Assembly: GCA_050115055.1 (NCBI GenBank)
Contig: JASFRE010000001.1
Location: 1-34,960 of the forward strand
Source of the DNA: Candidatus Eiseniibacteriota bacterium
GTDB lineage: Bacteria; Eisenbacteria; RBG-16-71-46; CAVPCR01; CBDCWB01
Direction: 5' to 3'
DNA length: 34,960 nucleotides
A model generated the notes under the pieces. It had not been told where the DNA came from, ran no database searches, and was given only the letters and a program-made list of their open reading frames with translations. Of the stretch, positions 2,481-32,949 are shown piece by piece. The first letter of the stretch is position 1. The number at the start of each line of letters is the position of its first letter. The position numbers were made by a program, and so were the translations under genes.

Positions 2481-2662
2481 GGTCTGGTCCTCCGTCGGAT
2501 CGGTGAGCGGCCGGCGGGCACGACGGACATCCGGCGGGCGGAGGGTGGTCCCGCACAGACGCTGCGGCGAGTGGGCGACGGAATGCCGGCCAGCAATGGC
2601 CCCGACACTCCCAGTGTACGCCGGTGCAACGCGTCCACCCATCACCGGCGTCAGGTCGGCAG

Positions 2663-2676
2663 TTGATCTCGGTCAA
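2663..2676. promoter_or_regulatory. Candidate FNR/CRP-family box TTGATctcgGTCAA (9/10 match to TTGAT-N4-ATCAA)
   Basis: The sequence at 2663-2676 is seen directly. It lies 183 bp upstream of the cytochrome ATG (2480) and 60 bp beyond the stop of the adjacent FNR-like regulator gene. That regulator keeps the E-x2-SR recognition-helix motif (ETLSR) that reads TTGAT half-sites in E. coli FNR. Confidence 0.5.
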
Positions 2677-5382: not shown

Positions 5383-5545
5383 CCGCCCGGCAACGGCGGA
5401 CAGCCAGCGGTCTGCACGGGCAACCGTGCGGCCGCGTGCGATCAGCGGGAAGGTCCGGGCGGACCGACTGCGCGAGCCCTTTCCGCACTGACCCGGAGCC
5501 CGGTGGTGCGGCGCCACGACCGGGCTCCCGCCTCCGGGGTGTCCC

Positions 5546-6487
5546 ATGCCTGCCTGTCTCCAGCATGGCTTCCACGCCGGCCGCGACGCGTCGATCGATG
5601 GCCGCGTCGCCGCCCTCCTCCGGCTCGCGCTGGGGGTCACGCTCGCGGCCTGTGTCGCCGCCGGCGCCGCCCCGGCGTCGACCTGGGTCGAGATCGGCGA
5701 CGCCGGCGATCTCCCGGACGATGCGCAGATCCCGGGCGGCACCGGCCCCTTCACCGCCATCTCCGGCTCGCTGCTGGCTGGCGGCGATGCCGACCTCTAC
5801 CTGATCCACGTCGACGACCCGGTGGGCTTCGAGGCCACGACCTGTCCGGACAGCGATGTCGACACGCAGCTCTGGCTCTTCGCTCTCGACGGCCTCGGGA
5901 TCACCTTCGACGACGATGCCCCCTCCTGCGGAGTCCTCTCGACCATCACCGGCGCGCACGTGCCGGCCCCCGGCCGCTACTACCTGGGATGCAGCGCCTA
6001 TGACTGGGACGCGCTCGACGCCGCCGGTGACGCCATCTGGCTCGACGAGCCGTACGACACCGAGCGGCCACCGGACGGTCCCGGCGCCGCTTCGCCGCTC
6101 GCGCAGTGGGGCGACACCGCCTACGAGGAGGGCAGCTACGTGATCACGCTCGCCGGGGTCTCCTGGGCGGTCACGTCGGTCGACCCGGTCGCTGTCCCCG
6201 CGCCCGTCGACTGCCTTCTCGACCAGAACGCGCCCAACCCCTTCAACCCGCACACGGTGATCCGGTACGAGCTGTTCCGGGCGGCGCCGATTCGCCTCCT
6301 GGTCTATGACATCTCCGGCCGCCTCCTGCGCGTCCTGATCGACCGCCGCCTGGCAGCGCCCGGTGCGCATTCGACCGCCTGGGATGGTCGCGACGACGCC
6401 GGACACGACGCCCCGTCGGGCGCCTACCTCTGCCGGCTGGTGGCCGGCGATCGCACGGCGACGATCCGCATGACCCTCGTCCGGTAG
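5546..6487 (+). CDS. Secreted hypothetical protein, PPC (pre-peptidase C-terminal)-like domain plus FlgD-Ig/T9SS-like C-terminal domain
   Basis: There is a hydrophobic signal-like segment (LLRLALGVTLAACVAAGAA) and a GDADLYLIHV motif typical of PPC-type domains. The tail is APNPFNPHTVIRYELFRAAPIRLLVYDISGRLLRVL...GAYLCRLVAGD. The exact start is uncertain. Confidence 0.7.
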   Translation: MPACLQHGFHAGRDASIDGRVAALLRLALGVTLAACVAAGAAPASTWVEIGDAGDLPDDAQIPGGTGPFTAISGSLLAGGDADLYLIHVDDPVGFEATTCPDSDVDTQLWLFALDGLGITFDDDAPSCGVLSTITGAHVPAPGRYYLGCSAYDWDALDAAGDAIWLDEPYDTERPPDGPGAASPLAQWGDTAYEEGSYVITLAGVSWAVTSVDPVAVPAPVDCLLDQNAPNPFNPHTVIRYELFRAAPIRLLVYDISGRLLRVLIDRRLAAPGAHSTAWDGRDDAGHDAPSGAYLCRLVAGDRTATIRMTLVR

Positions 6488-7662: not shown

Positions 7663-8493
7663 TCAACGCTCGACGATCTCCTCGAGGAGCAGCCGGTTCG
7701 GGATGCTCCAGCTCTCGGTGCCCGCCCTGAGCAGGGTGTCGACCGCACCGACCCGCTCGACCTCGCCGCGCCGCCCCTGCACGGCCACCGAGTGACCGAC
7801 CTCGAGGCTCCGGCGCAGGTAGTGTCCGGCGAGGATGTGTTCCACCAGGCGTCGGGAACCGAGCGCGAGGGCAATGCCCATCGACAGGGCGAAGGCCCCG
7901 AACAGCACGGTGGTCACGGTGACCAGGAGCTCGGTCGGCACGCCGAGCTGTTCGAGCGCCACGATGGCGACGACCAGCACGATGACACCCTGGGCGGCGT
8001 CGCCGAGACGATCGGCCTCACCGAAGCGCGCGGCCGCCGCGCCCGAGCGCACGACGTCGCGCGCGAAGCGGCCGACGAACAGGCCGATCAGGGCGATCAG
8101 ACCGGCCGCCAGCACGTTGGGCAGGTAGGCGATCACACGATCGATGGTGCCGGTCACCGCGCCGAGTCCGAGCGCCTCGGCCGCGATCAGGAGCACCGTC
8201 AGCATCAGGATCCAGTAGACCAGGCGGCCGGCGAGCGCCGACGGCGGCCTGCGAAGCCCGGCCTGGCGCAGGGGCCCGGTGAGCTCGAGCCGCTCCGCGG
8301 CACGATCGAGTCCGACCCGGTGCAGCGCCCGCACGACGAACGCTTGCAGCAGTCGTGCCGCGATCCAGCCGAGCACGAGGAGCAGCAGGGCACCGATCAG
8401 GCTCGGCAGGTAGGCACCGATTCGGGTCGCCAGGGCGTTCAGAGAGCTGGCCAGCACCGAGCGCCAGGTCTCCAGGTCGAAGATCTCCGTCAT
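7663..8493 (-). CDS. MscS-like / conserved-TM-helix membrane protein (mechanosensitive channel family)
   Basis: ORF 7663..9090, trimmed to the ATG at 8493, which has AAGGAG 4 nt upstream. It starts MTEIFDLETWRSV and has several hydrophobic helices. The C-terminal beta-domain-like segment VGHSVAVQGRRGEVERVGAVDTLLRAGTESWSIPNRLL is MscS-like. The stop lies 5 nt before the G1PDH ATG. Confidence 0.7.
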   Translation of the reverse strand: MTEIFDLETWRSVLASSLNALATRIGAYLPSLIGALLLLVLGWIAARLLQAFVVRALHRVGLDRAAERLELTGPLRQAGLRRPPSALAGRLVYWILMLTVLLIAAEALGLGAVTGTIDRVIAYLPNVLAAGLIALIGLFVGRFARDVVRSGAAAARFGEADRLGDAAQGVIVLVVAIVALEQLGVPTELLVTVTTVLFGAFALSMGIALALGSRRLVEHILAGHYLRRSLEVGHSVAVQGRRGEVERVGAVDTLLRAGTESWSIPNRLLLEEIVER

Positions 8494-8694
8494 GGCAACT
8501 CCTTCATGGTCGATCGACGACGCCGCGCCCGCCGGGGGCGCTCCGGGGCGCCGCATGGTGGCGCGGCGTCGCCGCATGCGGAAGGCGGGGCGAGAATACA
8601 CCATTGCTCCGTCGCCTCGGCCGGTGGCAAGCTCCCCGGCAGCTCTCCGCCGCTCTGAGTCTTCCGGCACCGCCCGGGACGGAGGGATCGGGAC

Positions 8695-9552
8695 ATGGAT
8701 CTGACGCGATCGCTGGCGCGCTCCTTCCTCGAGGACCACCCGCGGGACGCCGCGATGGTCATCGAGACGCTGACACCGACCGATGCCATCGAAGCGGTGT
8801 CGGGCGTCCCGGCCGCGCGGGTCGCGACGGTGCTCCGGTGGATGGCACCTGCGACCGCCGCGGCGCTGCTCGAGACCATGGTTCCCGATCGCGCCGTGGA
8901 GATGCTCGGGGCGCTGCCGGTCGGCAACGCCCCGTCCGTGCTGCGGCGTGTCGAGGAGGCGCGGCGCGAAGAGCTGCTCTCGGGGCTGCCCCCCGCGACC
9001 GGCAGCGCCCTGCGACGACTGCTGCGCTATCCGGCCGGCACCGCCGGTGCGGTCATGGACCCGCGCATCACCGCGCTCGTCGACGACCACACGGCCGAGG
9101 GCGCCCTGGCCCAGCTACGGCGCTCGCGGGACACCACGCTCTACAACCTCTACGTCATCGACCGTGAGCGGCGTCTGGTCGGCGTCCTCGATCTCGACGA
9201 GCTGCTCCGGGCCAGTCCGAGCTCCACGCTCCGCGCCCTGGCCCGACCGGCCGACCTGAGGATCCCGGTCGAGGCCGACCGCCGGCAGATCACCGCGCAT
9301 GCGGGCTGGCAGCGGGTCGACTCGCTGCCCGTCGTCGACGCGAACGGCGTCTTCCTGGGCGCCGTCCGCTACCGGACCATGCGCCAGCTGGAGAACGAGC
9401 TCGCCGCGACCGCCGTCGACGACGGTGTGTCGACCTCGCGCGCTCTGGGCGACCTGTTTGCCGCGGGGCTCGGGGGCATCGTCGACGCCATCGCCCAGTC
9501 CGTGTCGCCGGCCCACCGTCCCCGGGCCGATCGACGGGAGGAGGACCGATGA
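8695..9552 (+). CDS. MgtE N-terminal domain + CBS pair protein without transmembrane domain
   Basis: GGAGGG lies 8 nt upstream of the ATG. The sequence parallels the cytosolic half of the next gene (LLRYPAGTAGAVMDPRITAL versus LMSYPPDSAGALMDPRVLGF). There is no hydrophobic C-terminal domain. It has a 4-bp ATGA overlap with the mgtE start. Confidence 0.8.
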   Translation: MDLTRSLARSFLEDHPRDAAMVIETLTPTDAIEAVSGVPAARVATVLRWMAPATAAALLETMVPDRAVEMLGALPVGNAPSVLRRVEEARREELLSGLPPATGSALRRLLRYPAGTAGAVMDPRITALVDDHTAEGALAQLRRSRDTTLYNLYVIDRERRLVGVLDLDELLRASPSSTLRALARPADLRIPVEADRRQITAHAGWQRVDSLPVVDANGVFLGAVRYRTMRQLENELAATAVDDGVSTSRALGDLFAAGLGGIVDAIAQSVSPAHRPRADRREEDR

Positions 9553-10856
9553 CTCCCAAGCGCACCTCCGGAGAGCTGCGCCTCGCCCGGGCCTACATCG
9601 AGCGCCATCCGGCCGAGGCGGCGCGCCATCTCGATGCCGCACCGCCCGACGAGCTCGCGACCGTGCTCGAGGAGGAGAGCGCCGCACGGCGGACCCAGGT
9701 CATCCGCCACCTGAGCGGCGAGACCGCCTCGGAGGTCGTGCGCCTGCTCGGCGACGAGGCGACTCGGCAGCTCCTCCGGTCCCTCGATCCGAGTCGCGCC
9801 GCGGCGTTGCTGGCCCGACTCGAGCCCGAGGTCCAGGAGGCGAACCTGGCGCTACTCGAGCCGGGCCTGCGCGCGGAGCTCCGCGAGCTCATGAGCTATC
9901 CGCCGGACAGCGCCGGTGCGCTCATGGATCCCAGGGTGCTCGGGTTCGCGCGGGGCACGCAGGTTCGCGAGGTCCTCCGGCGCCTGCGGGCGCTCCGCCG
10001 GCGACGCGTGCAGGACCTGTTCGTCGTCGACGACGAGGGGGCGCTGCTCGGGACCGTGCCCCTGCAACGCGTCGTGCTCGCCGCCTCCGGAGATCACCTC
10101 GACCAGCTGGTCGACGAGCCGCCGGCGGCGGTGCAGGCCCTGGCGCCGCGCGACGAGATCATGGAGCTCCTGTCGGCGCACCGCGCCTCCAGCCTGCCGG
10201 TGGTCGACTTCGAGGGCCGGCTCCTCGGCGTCCTCCGCCAGGACGAGCTGATCGCCACCGCACAGCAGGACGCGACCACCGACATGGTCACCATGGTCGG
10301 GGCGGGCAAGGACGAGCGGGCACTGTCGACGCCCTGGTTCGCGGTGCGCAAGCGCCTACCTTGGTTGGAGATCAACCTGCTGACCGCCTTCCTGGCCGCC
10401 TCGGTGGTCGGGGTCTTCGAGGACACGATCGCCCGCTTCACGGCCCTCGCCGTCCTCCTCCCGGTGGTCGCCGGTCAGTCGGGCAACACCGGCGCCCAGG
10501 CCCTCGCGGTCACCATGCGCGGGCTGGCACTCAGGGAGATCCGCCTGCGACACTGGCTGCGGGTCACCTCGAAGGAGCTGCTCGCCGGTTGCCTGAACGG
10601 TGTCGCGGTCGCCGTCACCACGGCGGGCGCGGTCTACGTCTGGAGCCGCTCGACCGGGCTCGCGATGGTCATCGGCGTGTCGATGATCATCTCGATGACC
10701 GCCGCGGGGCTCGCCGGTGCCACGATCCCGCTCATCCTCACGCGTCTCAGGCAGGATCCGGCGCAGTCGTCGTCGATCATCCTGACGACGGTCACCGACG
10801 TGGTCGGCTTCTTCAGCTTCCTGGGAATCGCGACGCTGCTCGCGTCGAAGTTGTGA
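9549..10856 (+). CDS. mgtE: Magnesium transporter MgtE
   Basis: It has an N-domain, a CBS pair and a TM domain with VVAGQSGNTGAQALAVTMRGLALREI and TTVTDVVGFFSFLGIATL, both characteristic MgtE motifs. Confidence 0.9.
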   Translation: MTPKRTSGELRLARAYIERHPAEAARHLDAAPPDELATVLEEESAARRTQVIRHLSGETASEVVRLLGDEATRQLLRSLDPSRAAALLARLEPEVQEANLALLEPGLRAELRELMSYPPDSAGALMDPRVLGFARGTQVREVLRRLRALRRRRVQDLFVVDDEGALLGTVPLQRVVLAASGDHLDQLVDEPPAAVQALAPRDEIMELLSAHRASSLPVVDFEGRLLGVLRQDELIATAQQDATTDMVTMVGAGKDERALSTPWFAVRKRLPWLEINLLTAFLAASVVGVFEDTIARFTALAVLLPVVAGQSGNTGAQALAVTMRGLALREIRLRHWLRVTSKELLAGCLNGVAVAVTTAGAVYVWSRSTGLAMVIGVSMIISMTAAGLAGATIPLILTRLRQDPAQSSSIILTTVTDVVGFFSFLGIATLLASKL

Positions 10857-10860
10857 CCGA

Positions 10861-10878
10861 CCGCGCCGGGGGGCGCGG
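10861..10878. terminator. GC-rich hairpin CCGCGCC-GGGG-GGCGCGG in the convergent gap between mgtE and the HD gene
   Basis: A 7-bp perfect stem is seen directly, 5 nt after the mgtE stop. A second small hairpin (CCCGGCAGCCGGG) follows. There is no U-tract. Confidence 0.35.
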
Positions 10879-10905
10879 CCCGGCAGCCGGGCGCCGCTTG
10901 GCCCT

Positions 10906-11379
10906 CTACCTGCCCCGCAGGCGCTCGAGGGCGCGCGCGTAACGCCCCAGCTTCCCGCGCAGGGCCGCCGCTTCCGTCGACGTCTCCCCCGCCCGCTCCG
11001 CGGCCTCGATGACCTCGAGCGCCCGCCGCCGGTTGTCCTCGGCGTCGAGGATCTTGACGCGCCGCGCCAGGGGGACCGCCGCAGCGCGCTCGATGTAGGC
11101 GTCGTAGTCCTCGCCGTGGCGGCGGCTCAGGGCATCGACGGCCACCACCAGGCGCTCGTCGAAACCCTCGCGGCGCAGCCCGGCCGGCGTCCACGACGAG
11201 CCCTCGATGACGTCGTGCAGGATGGCGACGATCCGCTCATCGTCGTCTGCGGCGCGCGCCATCATCCGGAGCGGATGCAGGATCTTGGCCTCGCCGCCCT
11301 TGCCGGTCTGTCCCGAGTGGGCATCGAGGGCGACGGCCAGGGCGCGTTCGATCAGCGCTCTCGTGGACGCTGGCGTCAT
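10906..11379 (-). CDS. HD-domain phosphohydrolase, SpoT/Mesh1-like (small alarmone hydrolase-like)
   Basis: ORF 10906..12003, trimmed to the ATG at 11379, which overlaps the sixA-like stop as ATGA. AHSGQTGKGGEAKILHPLRMMA....IVAILHDVIE matches the RelA/SpoT hydrolase pattern H-x-GQ...HP...LHD. Confidence 0.75.
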   Translation of the reverse strand: MTPASTRALIERALAVALDAHSGQTGKGGEAKILHPLRMMARAADDDERIVAILHDVIEGSSWTPAGLRREGFDERLVVAVDALSRRHGEDYDAYIERAAAVPLARRVKILDAEDNRRRALEVIEAAERAGETSTEAAALRGKLGRYARALERLRGR

Positions 11380-11882
11380 GAGGCGCCGTCGCTGTCGCGC
11401 TTCGGGTAGTCGAAGTCCATCACGACGGGAACGGTGACGTCGATGTCCGCCCAGCGGTCGACGTCGAGGCGGAGCTCGACGACTCCCGAGGTCGGCACGT
11501 TGCCGATCGGCTCGCAGTCGAACCGGTTGACCAGATCGGTCAGGTCCGGGTTGTGTCCGAACAGCATCAAGTGGTCGATCGAGTCGGGTTGCGCGCGCAC
11601 GATCTCGAGCAGCGCGTCGGCATCGCCGTGGTAGATGCGCTCGTCGAACCGGATCGCCTGGCGATCGACACCGAGCGCCTCGGCGAAGGCCGCGGCGGTC
11701 CTGCGGGCGCGGCGCGCCGGGCTCGAGAGCAGCAGGTCCGGGCGCGCTCCGCGACCGGCGACGCGCGCCGCCATGCGCGGCGCGTCGCGCTTGCCACGCT
11801 TGTTGAGCGGCCGATCGAGGTCGGGCAGGGTCGAGTCCGACCAGCTCGACTTGGCGTGGCGCACCAGGGTGACGATCTTCAT
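11376..11882 (-). CDS. sixA: SixA-type phosphohistidine phosphatase (histidine phosphatase superfamily)
   Basis: ORF 11376..12710, trimmed to the ATG at 11882, which overlaps the stop of the giant Hsp70-like gene as ATGA. It starts MKIVTLVRHAKSSW...DRPLNKRGKRDA and also has LLLSSPARRARRTA and LFGHNPDL. Confidence 0.8.
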   Translation of the reverse strand: MKIVTLVRHAKSSWSDSTLPDLDRPLNKRGKRDAPRMAARVAGRGARPDLLLSSPARRARRTAAAFAEALGVDRQAIRFDERIYHGDADALLEIVRAQPDSIDHLMLFGHNPDLTDLVNRFDCEPIGNVPTSGVVELRLDVDRWADIDVTVPVVMDFDYPKRDSDGAS

Positions 11883-14800
11883 CGATCCCCCGCCTCCGGC
11901 GCGCCGTCGCCGGCGGTCGCCCCGGCCGGGGCGACCTCGGGCTCGACCAGCACCAGCCCGGCCGGCAACGCCTCGCCGAACACCCTGCTGTCCTCGTCGC
12001 CACCCAGCTCGCCGCCCTCGCTCACCAGCTCGATCTCGCGCGCGTAGTCGCCGGCCTCGCGCAGCCGGCCCACGACGCGCTCGCGCAGCGCCTCGCCGAT
12101 GTCGCGCTCCCGGTCGCCGGTGCGGCGGGCCAGGTGCGCCAGCGTGTGCGCGATCGCGTCGGCATCGGGCCACGCGCTCTCGAGCAGGGCGGTGATCCAT
12201 CTCTCCACCGCCTTCCGCGAGACGACGCGGTTCGCGTGCCCGTGGAACGGCACCCGCGCCCCCAGCCGTGCCAGGACCCAGGCGTCCTGTTCGGCCGGCT
12301 TGCCGGCCGTGATCCGCGCGACGATCTCGCGACCGAGGTCCGCCTTGCGCGCCGGTTCGATGTGTTCGAGGCTGGCGGCGCACAGCCACATCTCCACGCG
12401 CTCCTGCTTGCCGAGCCGCCGCGGGATGAAGCCCGCGGCACCGCCACCGCTCGCGCCATGGCGCCCGCCGGTGCGGCCGCGCGTCTTGCTCTTGGCCTTG
12501 CCCTTGCCCCTGGACTTCGCGGAGCGTGCGGCCTTGCCCGGCGCACCGCCACCACCCGGGCCGGCGACGAGCGGCGGCACCAGCGGGTGCACGAGCTGCT
12601 CCTGCTGGCCGGCGGAGAGCCCGCCGGCCACGCGCCGCCACAGGATCCACCACTCGGTCCGGCACTGCTCGTTGCCGGGATGCAGCACCCCGGCATGCGA
12701 GATCTTCCACAGCTCGCGGAGTCGCCAGTCGTCCATCGGGTAGCCGAACCCGGGGCGCAGGCAGAAGCCGATCAGGTTGAGCCAGCGAGCCTCGTGCGCC
12801 GGGCTGCGGCGGCGGTGCTCGCGCACGTCCAGCAGCAGCTCGGCCAGCTTGCGGAGCGCCGCCAGGGGCCAGGCGTCGCGCTCGAGCTGGATCGCATCCC
12901 GCAGTCGCCGCATCAGGTTCTGCGGCGTCACCGGTCCGTCACGCCGGCCGCCGGTACCACGTCGCACGTCGCCGGTGTCCACCCCGGCGCCGGTATCCGT
13001 CGCGGCACCGGCGTCCGCGGCGGCGCCGGCGTCCGCCGCACCAGCCGCGTCGTCCTCCGCGTCGAGCTCCTCGCGCGGCACGAAGGCCTCGCGCACCAGT
13101 CGCTCCATCACCTCGACCAGGTTCTCGTCGAGCGTCACGCCCTGATCGAGCGTCGTGCCCGGCGCCGCGCTCTCGTCGCCCGGCTCGCGTCGAACCTGGA
13201 AGCGCAGCCGCCAGCGGTGCTCGCTCTCCTGCGAGGCACAGAAGAGCTCCAGCGTCCCGACCTCCGTCAGGTGAGCCTCGAGGCGCACCGGCAACAGGCG
13301 CTCGCCGGCCTTGGTGCCGAAGCGCAGCACGGTGCGGATCGGCGGCAGCTCGACCACCGCGTCCCGCTCGACGATGACCACGTCGGCCACCCGGTCGGTG
13401 CGCACGCTCGAGCTGTAGAGCGCGAAGGCGACCGGTCGGTTGACGTGCGCCTCGAAGGGGCGCTCGAGCTCGATGGTCTCCCCCTCCTCGGTGCCGCGCC
13501 GCACGAGACAGACCGTCGCCACCGGATCCTCGAGCTCCGGCTCGTCGATCTCGATGCCCTCGACCGCCACGTAGTAGCCGCGCGCGCTGCCGCCGTGGAT
13601 GCGCACGCCGCGGCCGCGCCGCACGATGCCGTAATAGGCGGCACCGCGTGCCACGGCCAGCCTGAGGTCCGGGTTCTCGAGCTCGGTCGGCCGGAACGCC
13701 GCATCCTCGTCCGCGAACCAGGCGGAGACCACGTCGAGCAGTCGATGGCGGACTGCCGGCGGCGTCAGCGCCGCACCGTTCCACAGCACGAGATCGGGGC
13801 GGGCGAGCGGCACGCTCGCGCCGGGGCGCGCATCGACGCTCGCGTGATGCCGGCCGAGGAACTCGGCGAGGTGACGGGTGACGGCGGCATCGGAAACATA
13901 CGGCAATCCCCACTCGCGGAGCCCGGAGCGCCGCCGCTCGGGGCGCGCGCCCGCATCGACCAGCGGGAAGAAGCCGTCGACGACCACGCGCCGTGCCTCG
14001 TCGTAGGAGAGCTCGGTCTGGATGAAGCCGCCGACGACGCGCGACCCACCTCCCATGACCCCGACCGGCACCGACCGTCCGGAACCCGCGTGCGTCCCGG
14101 CCGTCTCCGGATCCGGCCGGTCCGCCTCCGGTTCCTGGGAGGGCCAGCCGGCCGGGTGGCGCATGCCGAAGGCCGGCCCCCCCGCGACGTCCGGCAGCGC
14201 GGCGTCGTCGCCTGCCGACTCGCCAGCCGGCCCGGCCGGCGGCGCCGCCACGTCCTCACCGGGCCCCTGCACCTCCTCGCCGAGCAGCGTCTCCTTGGCG
14301 CCGCGGCAGGCGTGCGTCAGGCCGGCCCAGGCCTGCGTGTCGAGCGTCGCCCCCTGCGCCTTCAGCCGCTCCTCGAGCTGCCGCGCCAGCGCCAGGTCCA
14401 TGTTGTCGCCGCCGAGCATCAGGTGCTCACCGACCGCGACGCGCTCGAAGCGCAGCCCCTGCCGGCCCTCCCGCACCACGATCAGGCTGAAGTCGGTCGT
14501 GCCGCCGCCGACGTCGCAGACCAGGATGACCTGGTCGGCATGCAGGACACTGGCCCACTCCGAGGAGTGCGCGGCAAGCCAGGCGTAGAACGCCGCCTGC
14601 GGCTCCTCGAGCAGCCTCACGCGTTCGATGCCGGCGGCCTGCGCCGCCTCGAGCGTCAGCTCCCGCGCCACCTCGTCGAACGAGGCGGGCACCGTGAGCA
14701 CGACGTCCTGCCGTGCCAGGGCAAGCTCCGGATCGTCGCCCGCCATCGATGCATCCCAGGCCTCGCGCACGTGCTCGAGGTAGCGGGCCGAGACCGCCAC

Positions 14801-15316
14801 CGGCGACAGCTTCTCGACCTCGTCGCTACCGCCCCACGGCAGGATCGGGGCGGTGCGATCGACGTCGCCGTGACACAGCCAGGACTTGGCCGACGACACC
14901 AGCCGCCCCGGGACCCGCGCCCCCTGGTCGCGGGCGAACTCGCCGACCGCGTAGCGCCGCCCCCGCGTCCAGGGCAGCACGGTGGCCCCCTCCGGCAACT
15001 CGTGCGTTCCCGGCAGGTAGAGGAAGGAGGGCAGGGTGGCGCGCGGCGCCACGGCCCCCTCGGCGACGAGCTGCGGCACCTCGAAGGTGTGGACCGGCGG
15101 ATCGCCCGACCAGCGCTCGCGCGTGTCGATGTAGGCGACGGCCGAGTTCGTGGTGCCGAGATCGATCCCGATCACGTAGCGCGATGGCTCGCGGTCAGAC
15201 GTGGAATCCTGCGGCAACTCGTGTGCCGTCCCCGGTGTCACACCGTCGCCGCCCCGTGCGCCGGCACCGCCTGCCGCGTCCTTGCCCGCCTTGTCGTCGA
15301 TTCCAGGATGGACCAT
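11879..15316 (-). CDS. Giant Hsp70-family ATPase paralogue (NBD + beta-domain + about 400-aa helical C-terminal domain)
   Basis: Motifs are YVIGIDLGTTNSAVAY, SAKSWLCHGDVDRTAPILPW, LLEEPQAAFYAW, VCDVGGGTTDFSLI and LGGDNMDLALA. I prefer the ATG at 15316 because third-position GC drops upstream of it. The ATG at 15370 (ORF track, 23-nt overlap with the upstream gene) remains possible. Confidence 0.85.
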   Translation of the reverse strand: MVHPGIDDKAGKDAAGGAGARGGDGVTPGTAHELPQDSTSDREPSRYVIGIDLGTTNSAVAYIDTRERWSGDPPVHTFEVPQLVAEGAVAPRATLPSFLYLPGTHELPEGATVLPWTRGRRYAVGEFARDQGARVPGRLVSSAKSWLCHGDVDRTAPILPWGGSDEVEKLSPVAVSARYLEHVREAWDASMAGDDPELALARQDVVLTVPASFDEVARELTLEAAQAAGIERVRLLEEPQAAFYAWLAAHSSEWASVLHADQVILVCDVGGGTTDFSLIVVREGRQGLRFERVAVGEHLMLGGDNMDLALARQLEERLKAQGATLDTQAWAGLTHACRGAKETLLGEEVQGPGEDVAAPPAGPAGESAGDDAALPDVAGGPAFGMRHPAGWPSQEPEADRPDPETAGTHAGSGRSVPVGVMGGGSRVVGGFIQTELSYDEARRVVVDGFFPLVDAGARPERRRSGLREWGLPYVSDAAVTRHLAEFLGRHHASVDARPGASVPLARPDLVLWNGAALTPPAVRHRLLDVVSAWFADEDAAFRPTELENPDLRLAVARGAAYYGIVRRGRGVRIHGGSARGYYVAVEGIEIDEPELEDPVATVCLVRRGTEEGETIELERPFEAHVNRPVAFALYSSSVRTDRVADVVIVERDAVVELPPIRTVLRFGTKAGERLLPVRLEAHLTEVGTLELFCASQESEHRWRLRFQVRREPGDESAAPGTTLDQGVTLDENLVEVMERLVREAFVPREELDAEDDAAGAADAGAAADAGAATDTGAGVDTGDVRRGTGGRRDGPVTPQNLMRRLRDAIQLERDAWPLAALRKLAELLLDVREHRRRSPAHEARWLNLIGFCLRPGFGYPMDDWRLRELWKISHAGVLHPGNEQCRTEWWILWRRVAGGLSAGQQEQLVHPLVPPLVAGPGGGGAPGKAARSAKSRGKGKAKSKTRGRTGGRHGASGGGAAGFIPRRLGKQERVEMWLCAASLEHIEPARKADLGREIVARITAGKPAEQDAWVLARLGARVPFHGHANRVVSRKAVERWITALLESAWPDADAIAHTLAHLARRTGDRERDIGEALRERVVGRLREAGDYAREIELVSEGGELGGDEDSRVFGEALPAGLVLVEPEVAPAGATAGDGAPEAGDR

Positions 15317-15347
15317 CACACCAGCACCTGCCGATCCACTGTCCGGA

Positions 15348-17294
15348 TCACGTCCCGCCTCGGGACGCATCCGATGTTTCGCGCACGTTGAATTCGAGCG
15401 TCCAGCGACCGCGCCCGTCGCGGCTCACGCACCAGAGCTCCAGCGTCCCGACCTCGGTGACCCGCGAACGCAGCCTGACCGGCACCGTGCTGCCCGCCAC
15501 ACCGCCCTCCTCGTCGCCGACCGGCAGCGTGGTGGAGATCGGCGCCAGCTCCTCGATCTCGTCCGTCCAGCTCTCGACCACGGTGCCGACCTGGTCCTCC
15601 TGCCGCACGCTGGAGCCGAGGAAGCGGAACTCGACCGGTTCACCCACCACCAGACCGAACTCGGCGTCCGGCAGCTCGGCCTCCATGCCCTCCTCCATGC
15701 CGAACGGCACGACGCAGACCGCCTTGAGCGGCGCCGCCATTCCCGGCACGGCCGGCATCGACGACTCGACGCCGATGTAGTAGGAGCGCGCCGTGCCGCC
15801 GCGGATGCGGATCCCGCGCCCGCGCCGTGCCAGTCCGTAGTAGGCCGCACCGCGCGCCACCGCACGATCGAGATCGATGCCGCCGAGCGTCCGCACCGTG
15901 TCGCTCCCGGCGTCGTGTGCCCATCGTGCGAGCAGCGTCACGACACGCTCACGCATGGCCTCGGCCTTCATGACGCCGCCGTTGAACAGCACCGCGGTCG
16001 GCAGCGTCTCGCGGAGCGTGCTGTCGCCGCCGCCGCCCGCCTGCCGACCGAGAAAGTGGGCCAGGTGTCGCGTCATGGCCGGGTCCGACTCGTAGGGCAG
16101 GCCGAGCTCGCGCATGCCGGTGCGACGGCGCGACTCCGGCACCGCGTCGACCTCGCACTCCGGGAAGAAGCCGTCGACCAGCACGCGCGCGATGTCGGCC
16201 TGCTCGAGCTCGGTGCGCAGCGTGCCGCCGATGAGCTTCGAGCCGCGCCCGACGACCACCACCGGCAGTGATTGCCGGTCCGGTTCGGCCAGCAGCGCCT
16301 CCTTCGCCACCCGGCAGCTGTGCCAGAGTCCGCGCAGCTGCCAGGCATCGAGCCGGTGCCCCTCGGCGGCGAGCTTGCCGGCCACGACGTGCGCCAGCGC
16401 CAGGTCCATGTTGTCGCCGCCGAGCAGGATATGGTCGCCGACCGCCACCCGCTCCAGCACCAGCTCACCATCCTCCTCGGTGACCGCGATCAGGCTCAGG
16501 TCGGTGGTGCCGCCGCCGACATCGCAGACCAGGATGCGATCGCCGACCGCGACCTGCTCGCGCCAGGCATCGCCCTGCTGGTCGAGCCAGGCATAGAACG
16601 CGGCCTGCGGCTCCTCGAGCAGCGTCACGTGACGCAGACCGGCCTGCTCGGCGGCGCGCGCTGTCAGGTCGCGCGCCGCGGCGTCGAACGACGCCGGCAC
16701 CGTCAGGAGGATCTCCTGGTGCTCGAGACGCGCCGCCCGCTCGTCGGCCGCCATGGCGTGGTTCCACGCGTCGCGCAGATGCTCGAGATAGCGCACGGTG
16801 GCCCCGAGCGGCGACAGCTTCTCGAGCTCGGGCGGCCCCTCCCACGGCAGGATGGGGGCGGTGCGGTCGACCTCGCCGTGGCGGAGCCAGGACTTCGCCG
16901 AGGCGATGACGCGCCCCGGCACCTCGGCGCCGCGGCGACGCGCCAGCTCGCCGACCACGTACGCCCGCCCCCGCGCCCACGGCAGGTCGAGGCTGCCCTC
17001 GGGCAGATCGTGCTCGGCGGCCAGGTACAGGAACGACGGCAACAACTCGCCAGCCGAGATGTTGCCGGGCTCGTCGAGCTGCGGCACGGCGAAGAGGTGG
17101 ATGGCAGGTGTCGTGGCGTCCGCTGCCGCCGCTGACGCCTCCCCGACCGCCGTGCCCCCCGACCCCGCCTCCGACGCCGCCTCTGACTCCGCCTCGAGGT
17201 CGACGTAGGCGAGGACGCAGTGCGTCGTTCCGAGGTCGATGCCGACGATGTAGCGCGCGTCGACGGCGCGCGTGTGGTGTCGCGTGTCGTTCAT
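15348..17294 (-). CDS. Hsp70-family ATPase paralogue (non-canonical, DnaK-like NBD)
   Basis: Motifs are YIVGIDLGTTHCVLAY, SAKSWLRHGEVDRTAPILPW, LLEEPQAAFYAW, VCDVGGGTTDLSLI and LGGDNMDLALA. The C-terminal VTEVGTLELWC motif is shared with the downstream paralogue (LTEVGTLELFC). I took the ATG at 17294 as the start; the GTG at 17321 is an alternative. Confidence 0.85.
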   Translation of the reverse strand: MNDTRHHTRAVDARYIVGIDLGTTHCVLAYVDLEAESEAASEAGSGGTAVGEASAAAADATTPAIHLFAVPQLDEPGNISAGELLPSFLYLAAEHDLPEGSLDLPWARGRAYVVGELARRRGAEVPGRVIASAKSWLRHGEVDRTAPILPWEGPPELEKLSPLGATVRYLEHLRDAWNHAMAADERAARLEHQEILLTVPASFDAAARDLTARAAEQAGLRHVTLLEEPQAAFYAWLDQQGDAWREQVAVGDRILVCDVGGGTTDLSLIAVTEEDGELVLERVAVGDHILLGGDNMDLALAHVVAGKLAAEGHRLDAWQLRGLWHSCRVAKEALLAEPDRQSLPVVVVGRGSKLIGGTLRTELEQADIARVLVDGFFPECEVDAVPESRRRTGMRELGLPYESDPAMTRHLAHFLGRQAGGGGDSTLRETLPTAVLFNGGVMKAEAMRERVVTLLARWAHDAGSDTVRTLGGIDLDRAVARGAAYYGLARRGRGIRIRGGTARSYYIGVESSMPAVPGMAAPLKAVCVVPFGMEEGMEAELPDAEFGLVVGEPVEFRFLGSSVRQEDQVGTVVESWTDEIEELAPISTTLPVGDEEGGVAGSTVPVRLRSRVTEVGTLELWCVSRDGRGRWTLEFNVRETSDASRGGT

Positions 17295-17394
17295 GATGCG
17301 ATGCGTCCGCTCCGCCGCCACGGGTCGCGCGCGGCGATCAGGGTCAGGTCCGAGTCCGTTCGGCGTCCACGCATGACCCCCGCCGGGTCACGGG

Positions 17395-18303
17395 TCAACC
17401 GATCTCGACCTCGGCCGGGGCGATGATCTCCGGATCCTGGCCGCGTGCATCGGTCGGCAATTGGACCTCCTTCGCACGCCAGCCACGGTGCCGGAGCGCT
17501 CCGGTGAACGGTGGATCGCCACTGACATTGCCCGTCAGCCGGATGGCCGAGGGATCGAAACCGCTCTCGACCGTGACCTGCGTTCCTTCGTCGGCCCCGT
17601 TGACCGGCTCGATGACCAGGTGCTCCTCGAGCGCCTGCCGGCAGCCCGCGTGCACGGCGCGCACCGCCGCGCCGATCTGCGCGTCGCTGAACGACTCGAT
17701 CTCCTCGCGCAGGAAGTCGACGAGCCGCCCGTCGCGCTGCAGGACAGCGAGCAGCTGCACGGCATCGCTCCTTCGGCGTACCGGTCCCGTCTCCTCGACC
17801 GCGGGCACGCTGCCGCGGACGGCGATCCACGCGGTGAACAGCGCCGCCAGGAAGGTCCCGGCGAAGGCGGCGACGACGATCCAGCGCTCCGGAGCCTCGA
17901 CGACCTCCTGCCAGTTGCGGGGCAGCATGGCCTTCCAGTCCGGGCCGCTCGCCGAACGGCGCGGTCCGGCGGCACCGGCTCCCGGCGCAGGGCCGGTGAC
18001 CACCTCACCACCGATCGCAGCCGCGCTGTCGTCCGCGGCGTCCGCGGCGACCGCGGCCGAGTCGGCCGCCGCCTCCTCCGCCCCGAGCGCCCCGCCTGCC
18101 GTCGTGTCGGCGGCCGTCGAGTCGGCCGTGACCAGGGTCGAGTCGGCGATCACCGGCGCCGGCCCCGTCGGCGCCGCCGCTCCGACCGTGGCGCCGGCCG
18201 CCCACGCAGACCAGCGCGCCACCATCGCCACCGCCACCGCCACCAGCAGCGCGAGGAGGAGGGCGGTCGTCAGGGTTCGCAGCACGGGCACTCTCGGGCG
18301 CAT
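17395..18303 (-). CDS. DUF2760-type membrane protein
   Basis: ORF 17395..18588, trimmed to the ATG at 18303, which has GGAGGAG 3 nt upstream. It has an N-terminal TM (LTTALLLALLVAVAVAMVA), an Ala/Asp-rich low-complexity stretch and a second TM (WIVVAAFAGTFLAALFTAWIAV). The conserved C-terminal domain is LLAVLQRDGRLVDFLREEIESFSDAQIGAAVRAVHAGCRQAL...IRLTGNVSGDPPFTGALRHRGWRA. I recognise this as the DUF2760 pattern usually found next to Hsp70-like genes. Confidence 0.75.
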   Translation of the reverse strand: MRPRVPVLRTLTTALLLALLVAVAVAMVARWSAWAAGATVGAAAPTGPAPVIADSTLVTADSTAADTTAGGALGAEEAAADSAAVAADAADDSAAAIGGEVVTGPAPGAGAAGPRRSASGPDWKAMLPRNWQEVVEAPERWIVVAAFAGTFLAALFTAWIAVRGSVPAVEETGPVRRRSDAVQLLAVLQRDGRLVDFLREEIESFSDAQIGAAVRAVHAGCRQALEEHLVIEPVNGADEGTQVTVESGFDPSAIRLTGNVSGDPPFTGALRHRGWRAKEVQLPTDARGQDPEIIAPAEVEIG

Positions 18304-18818
18304 GACTCCTCCGTACAACTTGCCATGGGAATGAGACTTAAGGGGATCACTGGAGTCCCGGCCGGGCAACGATGGGCCGGGCGGAGCGATCGCAGTGTTC
18401 GTCTCGCCGATGCGACCGCGGATTGTCGCACGGGTCGGCAGCGGGGGGAAGCCTCGCCTCCGACCGCGCCCGGTGGCACGGCGGGCGTCCGGGCCACCAC
18501 GTGGCCAGCGGCCGCACGCGGCGGTGGCACCATGGCCTGGGCCCCGGCCGTCTCGCGTGACCGTCTCAATCGTCTGATCTCGACCCACTCAACCGTCTCA
18601 GATGTGGAATCCCTGCAGCATGGATCTACAATGGCCGATCTGAATCTCTGAAGGCGTGGTTGCAGGAATGGCCCAGGGCCGCAAGGATGGGCCCGGCGGC
18701 CACGACCGGATCGGGGCGCCGTGGTGGTGGCGTCCAGGGTACCCCCGGAGTCGCGCCAGCTCCGACCCTCCAGCAGCGTGGCGGCGTGCCGGGCACGACC
18801 GCTGGCAGCGAGCCGACG

Positions 18819-24045: not shown

Positions 24046-27000
24046 CTACTTCATGAGCACCATCTTCCGGGTCCGCGACGCGTCACCGGCCGTGACCCGG
24101 TAGAAGTAGATCCCCGACGACTGACCGCTCGCGTCCCACAGCACCTGCCGCACGCCGGCCGGCTCGACCCCGTCGACCAGCCGCGTCACGTGCTGTCCCC
24201 GCACGTTGAAGACGTCGACCGTGACGTGGCGCGCCTCGGGCAGCTCGTAGCTCAGGCGGGTGATCGGATTGAAGGGGTTCGGCAGGTTCGGTCGCACCGC
24301 GAAGCGGAGCGGCAGACCGGAGGCCGCCGGCCCGCCGACCGCCGTCGTCGAGCCGCCGATGCTCGGCACGAAGCGGATCGCCCGCCCCTGGGTCAGCGTC
24401 GCCGCCCCCGGGACGTAATCGTTCCAGTAGGTGTAGAGCAGGCCGTCGGAGTGATCGTGGTTCTGGATGCCGACCGACGCGTAGCCGTTCACGGGATCGT
24501 AGTTCTGCACCGTCTGGTACTGGAACTCGATGATCCCGTCACCGGTCGCCGTCGTGTGATAGGCCGGATCGTAGAGGATCACCTCGAAGGTCTCGGTGGC
24601 GCCGTTGTAGTCGTTGCGGAAGCGGCTCCACTCGATCGTCCAGGTGTGCGCGCCGCTGTCGTAGTGCTCGAACGCCTTCGACGAGCCGCTCGACTGGTAG
24701 AGGTTGTCCCAGAACGGGCAGAGCATCGCGTTGGGACCGCCGGCGCTCGGCAGCGACCAGTTGCGGTAGTTGGTGAGGTAGGTCTCGCCCATCGCCAGCC
24801 AGCCGTTCGAGCAGACCGTCGCCCGGTCGTAGTCGACGCCGTAGTAGCGGAAGGTGAACGGCAGGTCGACGATGCGCGACCGGTCCTGGTAGCCGCCGTA
24901 GTCGCCGAGCACCACCTCGGTGCCGTTGCCACCGTAGGTCGGGTCGAGCTCGATCCAGCTGTAGGTCGGCGCCTCGTCGTAGGCGGTATCCGTGTTGTCG
25001 AATGCCATGTAGCCGTAGGCATCGGGACCGAACGGGTCGTCCGTGGCCAGCTGACCGACCGGCACGGTCACGTACGCCGTGTCGACCGCGCCGCCCGAGA
25101 ACGACGTGATGACCAGCAGGCCGGCCTGGTGTCCCTCGTAGGTGTTGGCGGCGGCGCTCACGCCGAAGCGGTCGACCGTGTTCTCGCCCGCCCCGCCGAT
25201 CGAGATCGTGCCGAACGAGCCGGTGCCGTCGGTCACGGTGACGAACGGACTCGTCGAGACCAGCGTGCCGGTGATGCCCGTAGCGGTCACGCCGCCGGTG
25301 TTGACCAGCTGGACACTCAGCTCGATCGATTCGCCCGGATCGAGGAGGCCGTTGCCGCCGGCGTTATAGAGCGTGGTGCCGTGCGCACCGAGGGCGGCCG
25401 AGACAACCGGCAGCTCGAACTGCGAGTCCCAGCGCGTGAGCCCCGAGGTGACTGCCAGGTCGAAACGCAGGACGTGGCCGTCGGGGCAACCGCCGCTCAC
25501 GGTGAAGTCGAAGTCGTCCGCGCTCCACGCCGTGGCCCCGGCGGCGATGTTGCCGAAGATCTCCTCGGCGTCGGTGACCGTCACGTAGGGATCGCTGGAG
25601 CTGAGCGTCGCCTCGACGCCGGCCGCGGTATTGACCCCGAAGTTCCGGAGCAGCGTGCGGAGCTCGATCGATTCGGTCGGGTTGAGCTGCCCGTTGCCGT
25701 TGCCACTGCTGGTGCCGTTGCCGTCGTCATCGATGCCGAGGCTCTCGTAGCCGACGTAGATGTCGTACTGCACCACCGGCACCGTCGCCAGGAACGCGTG
25801 ACGGTTGCGCTGGGTCACCGTGAGCTGGAGATCGCCCGCCACGGCCTGATCGATCAGCAGATCGGCCCTGCCCGCGGCGTCCGTGAAGGCCACCACCGGC
25901 TCGCCGCCGTCGACCAGGGCACAGACCTGCGCACCGGCAGCCGGGGCGTCACCCGGTCCGGTCACGACGATCGGCAACGTGTTGGCCCCGACCGGCAGCT
26001 CGGACGGGTGGGAGACGGTGAACGGATCGGGATAGGCCTGGTAGACCTCGAGCGCGGGATCGCCCATCAGGTTGTTCCAGTAAGCCCAGATCTCCGCCTC
26101 CTGCGGCTCGCTGTTGCCGTAGCAGAGCCAGAGCTCGATCTTGCCGCGGGTCAGCGCCGCGCCCATCGTCAGCTCGTCGCGGATCAGGCCGTGCCACACA
26201 CCGTAGTAGATGCAGTTGTTGTAGCGCGTGTGCGTGCCGCTCGTGGCGGTGCCGATGGCGCCGATCCCGCCCCTCACGCCGGTCGCGCCGCTGCCGGCGC
26301 GCAGGAACCCCTCGGAGCGCGACGTGCTCGAGGCGAACGAGCCCGTGCCACAGGTCATGATGACGCAGAACGGCATCTCCCAGCCGTTGGTCAGCTGGTA
26401 GGTATCGGCGTTGCCCCAGCCGCTCATCCCTAGCCAGCCGCGGTAGCCGAAGACGGTGTCGCCACGATCGAGGGCCTCGCCCATCAGGTAGTCGAAGTTG
26501 CCGGAGAAGACCGTGTCGACCTCGGTGTAGCCGATCTCCAGCAGGCGCTCCTTGACCCACTGGTTGATGATCACCGTGCTCTGTCCCGAGCTCGACGGGT
26601 CACCGACCACGCAGCCACGCGTGAACCAGCCGGGATCATCCAGCATCGGTGGGTCGGTCTCGTAGCCGACGATCTTGTTGACGATGCGCTCGAGCTCGAC
26701 CAGGTCGCTGCCGTTGAACGACAGACGACCGATGTGCACGTCGGAGAGGATGTCGGAGCCCTCGAGAGTCGTGTAGGGATGATCACCTTCCCCGTGGTAG
26801 AAGCTCAGGTTCTCGTAGAAGCACGGCAGCGCGTAGGTGCCGCTGGCGTCGCCGACCAGCGTCACGTACTCCAGATTGAGCGACGGATCGTCGTAGACGC
26901 CCTGGATGAAGTTCTTGATCGAGGTCGTCGAGGTGCCGGTCTGGGCAGTGGTGGCAAAGAGGACCGGCGATCCCTTGCGCTGGCGCCACTCGATCAGCGG

Positions 27001-27771: not shown

Positions 27772-28362
27772 GATTTCCTCCGCAATGGGAACGAAGACCG
27801 GGACTGGGCCACGGTCGCGCGGGTCATGAACTCGACGGCCTCGACACGGGATCCATCGGAGATGACCACGCGTGCCGGGGTCCGGCGCTGACGGACAGGG
27901 CGACCATCCGGGACGTCGCGGCGCCAGGAACGCACGCGTGTCCCGAGCCAGGGGCCTCCAGGGTTGCTTTGTCTACCCCGGCCGTGGGTGAGCCGCATGT
28001 CGGTCCTCGACGCGCGAGACCTGCGGGGGGCGGGACAGGGCAGCTGTGCAGGGGGCCTCGAGGCTACGAGGCAATGTGCAAGCCTCCCAAGATCTTAGCG
28101 GATCTGGCCGGGATGCGCCAGCGGCAGGTGCGGGGAACGGCCGGGAGCCGGCGCCGGCACGATGGGTCGAGGTCCGCCAGCAATCCTGCGCAGGACTGAG
28201 AACGGGTCGCGATAGCGATCGAACCGCGGCTCGCACCGGGTCTCCGCTCGCCTTCGGAGGTCATGCACAACGTCTTCCGCGCCAACGAGATGGCCGTGCG
28301 ACGCGGCTGCATCGATCACCGACGGTGAATCAATACATGAAGATTTCCCGCTAACTGTCTAC

Positions 28363-28372: not shown

Positions 28373-28426
28373 CTGATATGATTTCGTGAATCCACGTACT
28401 CACAGCCCGTTCCGGCGAGAGGCCCG

Positions 28427-28897
28427 ATGAAGCTGCGCACGCGCGCCCGATACTCGCTCCGCATGATGATGGCCATCGCCAGCCTGTCATCGGACGGGCG
28501 GCACGTCGGTCTCGGCGAGGTCGCGAGCCGCTGCTCGATCTCGCGCAAGTACCTCGAGCAGCTGGTCACGGCGCTGCGCAACGCGCAGCTCGTGCGCGCC
28601 CACGCCGGCCGCAGCGGCGGCTACGCGCTGGCCCGGCGACCGGACGAGATCCGGGTGCGCGAGATCATCGAGGCCGCCATCGGCCCGATCGCCGTCACCG
28701 ATTGCGCCGGCGATCCGGGGAGCTGCGGCTACGCCGAGTTCTGTCACTGCTGGGGGCTGTGGTCGCTGATCAATCACCGCGTCACCGAGGTCCTGGACGA
28801 GCACACGCTCGCGGACATTTTGGACGACGACTGGCTCGGCAAGGTGCGGGAGGAGCTCGACGGACCGCGACGCGCCGGCAGCGAGACGACCGCCTAG
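28427..28897 (+). CDS. Rrf2 family transcriptional regulator (IscR/NsrR-like, probable Fe-S cluster ligands)
   Basis: GAGAGG lies upstream of the ATG. MKLRTRARYSLRMMMAIA....ISRKYLEQLVTALRNAQLVRAHAGRSGGYALARRPDEIRVREIIEA is a classical Rrf2 wHTH. The Cys cluster is C-x6-C-x5-C-x-C (TDCAGDPGSCGYAEFCHC). Confidence 0.9.
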   Translation: MKLRTRARYSLRMMMAIASLSSDGRHVGLGEVASRCSISRKYLEQLVTALRNAQLVRAHAGRSGGYALARRPDEIRVREIIEAAIGPIAVTDCAGDPGSCGYAEFCHCWGLWSLINHRVTEVLDEHTLADILDDDWLGKVREELDGPRRAGSETTA

Positions 28898-28957
28898 CTT
28901 CCGGTCCGACGGTCCCACGGCCGGGCCGTCGCCCGGCCAGAGGAGGGCAAACGGGGC

Positions 28958-31509: not shown

Positions 31510-31544
31510 AAATCCGACCATTCCGGTGACGCGCATCGGATTTC
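31509..31544 (+). other. 9-bp perfect inverted repeat GAAATCCGA-N18-TCGGATTTC immediately after the dsrK-like stop
   Basis: Seen directly. It overlaps the last base of the stop codon and sits 31 nt before the HEAT gene ATG. It could be an RNA stem-loop (attenuator or processing site) or a protein-binding site. Confidence 0.35.
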
Positions 31545-31575
31545 CCGCTCCGGGCTCCATGAGGAGCCACGCCAG

Positions 31576-32824: not shown

Positions 32825-32949
32825 CACGATCCCGCGCGCGCTTCCGGCGTCGGCCCCACGGCCGGCCGGGATCGCCTCCCCGACGCGGGAACGTCTGACC
32901 CCGCTGACGGAGGCAATCGGGGGCGCGAGTGGACGGAGCGACGTGACCG

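Follow-up and report, generated by a model that had tools for sequence, protein, structure and literature searches.

A probably autonomous DUF2760/double-Hsp70 gene module with a lineage-specific two-gene appendix in Candidatus Eiseniibacteriota

Five adjacent genes on the minus strand of a Candidatus Eiseniibacteriota contig raise the question of whether genes so tightly linked also encode a single machine. The window that we analysed is the whole of this contig (JASFRE010000001.1, 34,960 bp, G+C content ~70%), which belongs to a metagenome-assembled genome. Read from its 5' end, the cluster encodes a membrane protein with a DUF2760 domain, two Hsp70-like ATPases that we call H1 and H2, a SixA-like phosphatase and a hydrolase of the HD superfamily (Table 1). 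A preliminary description of the locus, made from the sequence alone, had joined all five proteins into a membrane-anchored ATPase machine with a signalling output. We favour a different reading, to which we assign a probability of roughly 55%: the first three genes form an autonomous, ancient module, and the last two are an appendix specific to one lineage. The trio would then be a system catalogued under Pfam and PGAP names and otherwise uncharacterised, with the SixA-like and HD genes as a local addition rather than as parts of the core machine.

The distribution of the trio carries the first part of this reading. A pattern scan covering a single genome from each GTDB species detected DUF3731, the domain that ends H2, encoded in at least 589 species, with carriers in Deltaproteobacteria, Binatia, Chloroflexota, Planctomycetota, Nitrospirota, Fibrobacterota, Verrucomicrobiota, Acidobacteriota and others. 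Among the 53 loci with sufficient upstream sequence, 40 had the order DUF2760-H1-H2, which is also that of the co-directional genes in the window; a few carried DUF2760 and H2 only. These counts bear out the earlier statement that DUF2760 and a double Hsp70 recur together in bacteria without a described function. The surroundings of the module showed no such constancy. When all flanking open reading frames (ORFs) of 82 module loci were clustered, no family was found in more than 12 of them, and those that did recur were generic, response regulators for example, and variable in position. No J-protein or GrpE gene was recurrent beside the trio in these loci. Directly 3' of H2 lay a heterogeneous set of genes, including those for a PAS histidine kinase, a methyltransferase, IspF, glycosyltransferases, CstA and unknowns.

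The trio was also found in replicons of Comamonadaceae, Caballeronia and Burkholderia, and PGAP labels its members "DUF2760 domain-containing protein", "Hsp70 family protein" and "hsp70 family protein". On the Bradyrhizobium barranii conjugative plasmid pCC829_3 (MOBQ/MPF_T; locus L166), the complete trio and a MarR regulator occupy positions 8312-14161, with the trb transfer genes on one side and a DNA topoisomerase gene on the other. No phage copies were found. The PGAP-annotated trios of this plasmid, of Comamonadaceae OTU4NAUVB1 and of Burkholderia cenocepacia consist of the same three genes, arranged as they are in the window, with identities of 45-55% for H1, 37-45% for H2 and 49-56% for DUF2760. 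Unlike the window, none of them has a SixA-like or HD gene downstream.

The two ATPases have long been separate. Proteins from the H1 position (24 of 24) and those from the H2 position (24 of 24) formed reciprocally monophyletic clades in a neighbour-joining tree for which DnaK served as the root; thus, the duplication is older than the spread of the module. Twelve loci were reduced variants with a single Hsp70, either accompanied by DUF2760 or without it within 5.6 kb (L015, L017, L037, L003, L026, L042, L049, L054, L055, L068, L069 and L072), and the single Hsp70 fell in the H2 clade in all nine of these that were placed in the tree, which makes H1 the dispensable paralogue. A further departure from the usual arrangement occurs at L168 (2109-7021), where DUF3731 is a separate 313-aa ORF overlapping the end of a 606-aa Hsp70 gene and the DUF2760 protein has just 118 aa, with no space for transmembrane helices; this locus is either a split, soluble variant or the product of assembly frameshifts. 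On the closest long contigs (L001 and L002, both ENA long-read assemblies), the CstA carbon-starvation gene stands directly 3' of H2, and the Hsp70 genes are split into many short ORFs, a breakage probably due to frameshift errors.

The second part of the reading concerns the SixA-like and HD genes. Homologues of either were absent from the 82 module loci as searched by tblastn, with flanks of up to 10 kb where the contig allowed; these loci include two other Eisenbacteria genomes (L003 and L004) and two close relatives that have CstA after H2. The pair was also absent from two further relatives, which brings the module loci without it to 84. Outside the window, the order DUF3731/His_Phos_1/HD_4 was found only on two contigs, both from the same JGI metagenome, whose HD proteins have identities of 85% and 52%. 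This distribution suggests that the pair was added within one Eisenbacteria sublineage, where it became attached to the operon at its 3' end and was kept. The homologues of the two proteins pointed in the same direction. At three loci on long contigs, HD homologues had no module nearby and were solitary genes in unrelated contexts, in agreement with the "diverse genomic contexts" published for this group. No Hsp70, DUF2760, DUF3731 or HD gene was found near SixA-like homologues of 40-52% identity in 80 metagenome loci. A conserved SixA-HD pair was sought among the homologue loci and none was found. The only same-strand neighbour seen for the SixA-like genes encodes a protein with a CHAD domain; it occurs in ten of the 80 loci (L089, L117, L157 and others), with the SixA-like gene downstream in eight of the ten. 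The CHAD family is linked to polyphosphate; for the present question this neighbour is uninformative.

Several observations weigh against the three-gene reading, and most of them favour its first competitor, which is the view taken in the preliminary description: that the five proteins are one signalling machine whose output is phosphohistidine dephosphorylation or alarmone hydrolysis. Four-nucleotide overlaps join H2, the SixA-like gene and the HD gene, and the two related contigs keep this order even where HD identity falls to 52%, which argues that the linkage has some selective value in this clade. In a Methylomirabilota locus (L020, 9226-10701), a PAS-HisKA-HATPase histidine kinase gene overlaps the stop codon of the H2 orthologue. 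Apart from the appended pair, no signalling gene but this one was found in tight coupling with the module, and signalling links may thus recur sporadically. In addition, H2 has no DUF2760 gene within 5.6 kb in 8 of the 53 loci, so the anchor is not always adjacent. Against a five-protein machine stand the absence of the pair from the 84 other module loci, drawn from many phyla and including other Eisenbacteria, and the solitary, unrelated settings of its homologues. Pfam scans of the window ORFs returned no HPt, kinase or alarmone synthetase in the cluster, and the nearest kinase, a PAS histidine kinase at 32947-34785, is more than 14 kb away. On balance, we consider a five-protein machine unlikely. 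Coupling to SixA and HD genes does not characterise the module as such, and a signalling output is weakly possible for this lineage only.

Within the window, the layout of the cluster agrees with most of what had been reported. The five genes share the minus strand, a strong GGAGGAG ribosome-binding site precedes the first of them, and two ATGA start/stop overlaps link the last three, at 11879-11882 (H2 stop and SixA-like start) and at 11376-11379 (SixA-like stop and HD start). The spacing of H1 and H2 depends, as stated, on the start chosen for H2: its ATG at 15370 gives a 23-nt overlap with the 3' end of H1, and an internal Met gives a 31-nt gap instead. One coordinate had to be changed, for a cluster drawn from 11376 omits the fifth gene; the five genes span 10906-18303. 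They are flanked by opposite-strand genes, a convergent MgtE gene ending at 10856 and a divergent GT4 glycosyltransferase gene starting at 18660, and a terminator scan found no minus-strand terminator-like site inside the cluster. A single transcript is therefore plausible. Scans upstream of the cluster found neither a CIRCE heat-shock operator nor a sigma-70 promoter. Pfam scans of the main ORFs of the window returned no DnaJ, GrpE or alarmone-synthetase family, as had been noted for the first two.

Table 1. Coordinates of the five-gene cluster and of the domains of its two ATPases (window positions; aa, amino acids; residue numbers refer to the protein named)
Feature	Position	Strand	Length	Remarks
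Ribosome-binding site GGAGGAG	18306-18312	minus		Read from sequence; 2 nt 5' of the DUF2760 gene ATG
DUF2760 protein	17395-18303	minus	302 aa	ATG start
H1, Hsp70-like ATPase	15348-17321	minus	657 aa
H1 family-specific C-terminal domain				Residues ~502-657; carries TEVGTLELWC
H2, paralogous Hsp70-like ATPase with DUF3731	11879-15370	minus
H2, N-terminal two thirds	13181-15370	minus		Nucleotide-binding domain ~63-585 with low-complexity insert 366-431, then family domain ~586-730 (LTEVGTLELFC); boundaries approximate
H2, C-terminal third	11879-13180	minus		Linker and DUF3731 all-alpha solenoid
SixA-like phosphatase	11376-11882	minus	168 aa
HD hydrolase	10906-11379	minus	157 aa

We examined the ATPases by profile comparison. 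As the preliminary description had it, IGIDLGTT, DVGGGTTD and LGGDNMD, the phosphate and adenosine motifs of the DnaK type, are intact in both H1 and H2. Pfam HSP70 matched both in part (5e-15 for H1, 1e-23 for H2), and the best NCBIfam scores against DnaK, HscA and HscC were 78 bits for H1 and 101 bits for H2, below all of the cut-offs (620-822); hidden Markov model (HMM) searches thus agree that neither protein belongs to these families. A profile built from 29 H1 orthologues aligned by hhalign to residues 3-384 of E. coli DnaK (probability 99.5), which defines residues 24-501 of H1 as an Hsp70-type nucleotide-binding domain (NBD). H1 residues K143, E237, D267 and G269-T272, equivalent to K70, E171 and the D194-T199 segment of DnaK, are invariant in the 29 orthologues. 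Because these catalytic equivalents are invariant, H1 and H2 should hydrolyse ATP.

The two proteins also share the motifs SAKSWL[CR]HG[DE]VDRTAPILPW and [VL]TEVGTLEL[WF]C, which had been described as family-specific and absent from canonical DnaK. Their presence in both proteins was reproduced, but the first proved less exceptional than claimed: SAKSWL...VDR..PILPW aligns with FAIKRLIG...VQRDVSIMPF of DnaK, catalytic lysine included, and is on alignment grounds this family's variant of an element of subdomain IB that canonical DnaK also has. H1 and H2 are indeed paralogues of each other. BLASTP aligned them in two blocks of 54% and 46% identity (E = 1e-101) over the NBD and a shared C-terminal domain.

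This shared domain follows the NBD, comprises ~155 residues and carries the TEVGTLEL[WF]C motif. In H1 it gave no Pfam match at E values up to 10. The motifs seemed reminiscent of the beta part of an Hsp70 substrate-binding domain (SBD), and a DnaK-like SBD was accordingly considered for it; hhalign against DnaK residues 381-610 returned a probability of 0.9%, and the candidate was rejected. Thus, at the level of sequence profiles, the domain is not detectably SBD-like. A hydrophobic interdomain linker of the DVLLLD type was not recognisable in H1, in which the alignment to DnaK ends at the end of the NBD.

H2 differs from H1 in a further C-terminal domain, overlooked in the preliminary description, which matches Pfam DUF3731 ("DNA-K related protein", PF12531) with an E value of 2e-80 and a score of 270.5 bits (cut-off 25). 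An AlphaFold2 model of DUF3731 has a predicted local distance difference test score (pLDDT) of 84 and a predicted template modelling (TM) score of 0.82, and it forms a solenoid of 16 helices. Its top Foldseek matches were to armadillo, importin-alpha and HEAT repeats (E ~0.1, TM score ~0.4). As modelled, DUF3731 would be an ARM/HEAT-like solenoid, with a resemblance that is generic; no specific structural relative emerged. Within the domain lies a Lys/Arg/Gly-rich insert of ~45 residues (H2 residues ~905-950, window positions ~12520-12660), which is predicted to be disordered (pLDDT below 50) and falls in a stretch that is variable and largely gaps in the family consensus.

The intact catalytic residues of H1 and H2 suit a second alternative, in which the two proteins are co-chaperones of the housekeeping DnaK in general proteostasis, acting as Hsp110-like exchange factors or as enhancers of disaggregation. 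Such a role has been proposed for DnaK derivatives generally in a 2026 review, which calls the bacterial members an unexplored "dark matter" (PMC13580251). However, the lack of a recognisable linker or SBD, of a J-protein or GrpE gene nearby in any locus, and of a CIRCE operator all argue against it, and ATPases bound by obligate linkage to a membrane protein and a solenoid domain would be expected to serve a particular task at a particular site. We therefore doubt that general proteostasis accounts for the trio.

An HMM search upheld the assignment of the first gene to DUF2760 (PF10816; E = 1e-52; score 177.7 bits, cut-off 25; residues 179-300). Hydropathy places two hydrophobic helices at residues ~10-30 and ~140-162, on either side of an Ala/Gly-rich loop, and since positive residues flank both helices, the DUF2760 domain is predicted to be cytoplasmic. 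Compared with the PGAP-annotated trios, the window protein has an extra N-terminal transmembrane helix and a long Ala-rich loop. The domain itself is well conserved, with 50-74% identity across Binatia, Deltaproteobacteria, Polyangia and others and with 34 invariant alignment columns. Its C-terminal end in the window reads P-A-E-V-E-I (17395-17415), where the family form is P-A-E-x-E-[IL]; the P, the A and both E residues were invariant in all 45 of the 45 aligned family members. The family comprises 2144 clusters at 50% identity, and among the 150 listed, all are small proteins in which the domain ends together with the protein or a few residues before it. This putative tail motif recalls EEVD, the C-terminal docking motif of eukaryotic Hsp70 and Hsp90.

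The AlphaFold2 model of the DUF2760 protein (pLDDT 82) consists of a transmembrane helix, an alpha3-beta5 fold and a low-confidence tail, and Foldseek found no significant structural match to it in PDB or BFVD. A GrpE-like or J-like fold was considered and rejected, as nothing significant was returned by Foldseek, the match to GrpEL1 had a probability of 0.04 and BFVD yielded nothing. The literature that we searched yielded no papers on the module or on DUF2760 or DUF3731.

The two appended genes encode small enzymes that we were able to place more closely. The SixA-like protein matches Pfam His_Phos_1 (3e-12; score 46.9 bits, cut-off 21.7), its catalytic motifs RHA (VRHAKS) and the GHNP histidine are intact, and its top PDB match is 2rfl, a putative SixA (4e-16). 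It has the small His_Phos_1 fold, the size and the motifs of SixA. In contrast to SixA proper, it scores 49 bits against TIGR00249 (sixA), under the equivalog cut-off of 74.5, has no HPt-domain partner in the cluster and belongs to a broad family whose members, 40-52% identical, occur in many unrelated contexts. The name SixA phosphatase given earlier thus holds for the fold and the catalytic motifs and not at the level of the equivalog.

The HD protein had been called SpoT-like. Its closest solved relative is instead Aph1, a (p)ppApp hydrolase (PDB 7smg; 4e-27, ~50% identity over 113 residues), which is also its nearest characterised relative; the hydrolase domains of Rel and SpoT were far behind among its PDB matches. 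The match to Pfam HD_4 (0.0023, 18.1 bits) fell below the gathering cut-off of 27.2, and that to TIGR00691 was weak (1.4e-7) and covered residues 13-89 only. In an alignment, the protein keeps the family-invariant H21, H35, H55, D56, E59, K109, D112 and D115, and its HDxxED motif reads HDVIEG. Like Aph1, it is a single-domain HD protein of ~150 residues with the HD motif present; unlike that of Aph1, its gene has no MuF toxin or Tis1 context. Aph1 (adenosine 3'-pyrophosphohydrolase, 7SMG) is reported to owe its (p)ppApp specificity to the signature D24, R96, D116, R119, K133 and Y134, and its D24R/R119A variant gains ppGpp activity (Ahmad et al. 2023, PMC10083569). The window protein keeps R96 and Y134, replaces K133 with Arg and D24 with Gly, and does not conserve D116 and R119, so the signature is incomplete; the D24-to-Gly change is common to the HD proteins of the window and the two related contigs. 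These features argue for a small predicted alarmone hydrolase of the Aph1 type, acting on (p)ppApp or (p)ppGpp. Two substitutions are enough to broaden Aph1 towards ppGpp, and with the signature residues changed, the preference of the window protein could lie with either substrate.

Taken with the anatomy of the trio, these results suggest how an autonomous three-gene module might work. H1 and H2 probably act together as a heteromer, by analogy with the Hsp70-Hsp110 and Ssb-Ssz1 pairs. The DUF2760 protein would recruit them to the membrane on its inner side, where its domain or its invariant C-terminal tail would dock in the H2 solenoid, a likely binding platform, or in the family-specific domain. 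Such docking would take the place of the control that J-proteins and nucleotide exchange factors exert over canonical Hsp70s, and ATP turnover would serve to remodel a client close to the membrane, or to report on it. The ATGA coupling to H2 means that the SixA-like and HD proteins are made together with the module. Small phosphorylated or alarmone nucleotides are the likeliest substrates of both enzymes, under the same physiological conditions, and the two would be co-expressed passengers that stay outside the machine.

A stronger claim can be built from the same parts, namely that the trio is a new class of membrane-tethered Hsp70 machine, free of J-proteins and exchange factors and controlled by DUF2760, which this clade has wired to alarmone and phosphohistidine turnover through the Aph1-like and SixA-like enzymes. 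In this full form we hold it to be distinctly unlikely. If it were true, the DUF2760 domain and tail would control a heteromeric ATPase pair, and the version in this clade would be tied to (p)ppApp/(p)ppGpp turnover.

The variable neighbourhoods of the trio and its presence on a conjugative plasmid would also suit an anti-phage or conflict system with Hsp70-like ATPases as sensors or assembly factors, and conflict systems built around GTPases are known to include Hsp70s (PMC7159879). PADLOC 2.0 returned weak matches to the candidate system PDC-M61B (E ~1e-3), but these amounted to 15-16 bits over the NBD, with nothing for the other three proteins, and assignment to a known defence system was rejected. 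The systems described by Kaur et al. in 2020 combine Hsp70 with GTPase, tubulin, GrpE and DnaJ partners (PMC7159879); none of these is present at the locus, and that comparison was rejected as well. No effector domain, GTPase or tubulin partner accompanies the trio, phage copies are lacking, the genes around it in the window are ordinary housekeeping genes, and the 50-70% identity of DUF2760 across phyla sets it apart from fast-evolving defence proteins. We regard a conflict system as very improbable. That H1 and H2 are actin- or MreB-like polymers forming a membrane-attached filament is the least credible alternative. In its favour are Pfam MreB_Mbl matches of 28.0 and 28.7 bits, just over the cut-off of 27; against it, the H1 profile aligns to the whole Hsp70 NBD with subdomains IB and IIB included, and HSP70 and HscA models score far above MreB models.

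For the three-gene module, the analysis defines the anatomy of the trio, its autonomy and a docking hypothesis for the DUF2760 tail. The trio is among the more widespread and best-conserved bacterial DnaK derivatives, and its cultured carriers, Burkholderia cenocepacia, B. multivorans, Caballeronia and the Bradyrhizobium conjugative plasmid, allow the proposal to be tested. As a clue, the SixA/Aph1 appendix is minor and confined to its clade; a tie to stress or alarmone physiology is hinted at, but the function of the module is not defined by it.

Elsewhere in the window, several other features were recorded. An MgtE_N and CBS-only protein without a transporter domain (8695-9552, plus strand) overlaps by 4 nt the gene for a full-length MgtE with MgtE_N, CBS and MgtE domains (9549-10856, plus strand), and the two resemble a pair of Mg2+ channel regulators produced by splitting or duplication. 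A C25 gingipain-like peptidase of 1308 aa (24046-27972, minus strand) carries a Por_Secre_tail, the sorting domain of the type IX secretion system. Large proteins encoded at 5492-6487 (plus strand) and 3-2672 (minus strand) end in FlgD_ig-type domains, the match in 3-2672 being below the Pfam cut-off, and may also be secreted cargo. At 28382-32373 (plus strand), an Rrf2 regulator gene is followed by genes for a NarI-like membrane cytochrome and a Fer4/CCG protein, which resemble a DsrMK pair, and for a HEAT-repeat protein.

Among known systems, the stk locus of Myxococcus xanthus had been named as related, with StkA and StkB both as Hsp70-like proteins. StkA is a DnaK homologue of 540 aa with a regulatory rather than a heat-shock role, StkB is an SCP2-like protein of 141 codons and not an Hsp70, and StkC is a small PhaE-like protein of 89 aa (PMC4319316). 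The paper describes no second Hsp70, DUF2760 or DUF3731, and with a gene content unlike that of the window, homology to this locus was rejected. DnaK, HscA and HscC share with H1 and H2 the Hsp70-type NBD, with its phosphate-1, phosphate-2 and adenosine motifs and equivalents of the catalytic Lys, Glu and Asp. In contrast to these chaperones, H1 and H2 have no DVLLLD-type linker and no detectable SBD-beta or lid, lack a J-protein or GrpE partner in the window and any recurrent one in the 82 loci, carry the novel ~155-residue domain and, in H2, DUF3731, and are linked in the trio to a DUF2760 membrane protein. The Hsp70-Hsp110 and Ssb-Ssz1 (ribosome-associated complex) pairs come closer, although H1 and H2 both keep their catalytic residues, are bacterial, predicted to be membrane-tethered and encoded in one operon. 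As in those pairs (see also PMC13580251), there are two diverged paralogues that are expected to work together, one of them with extra C-terminal structure.

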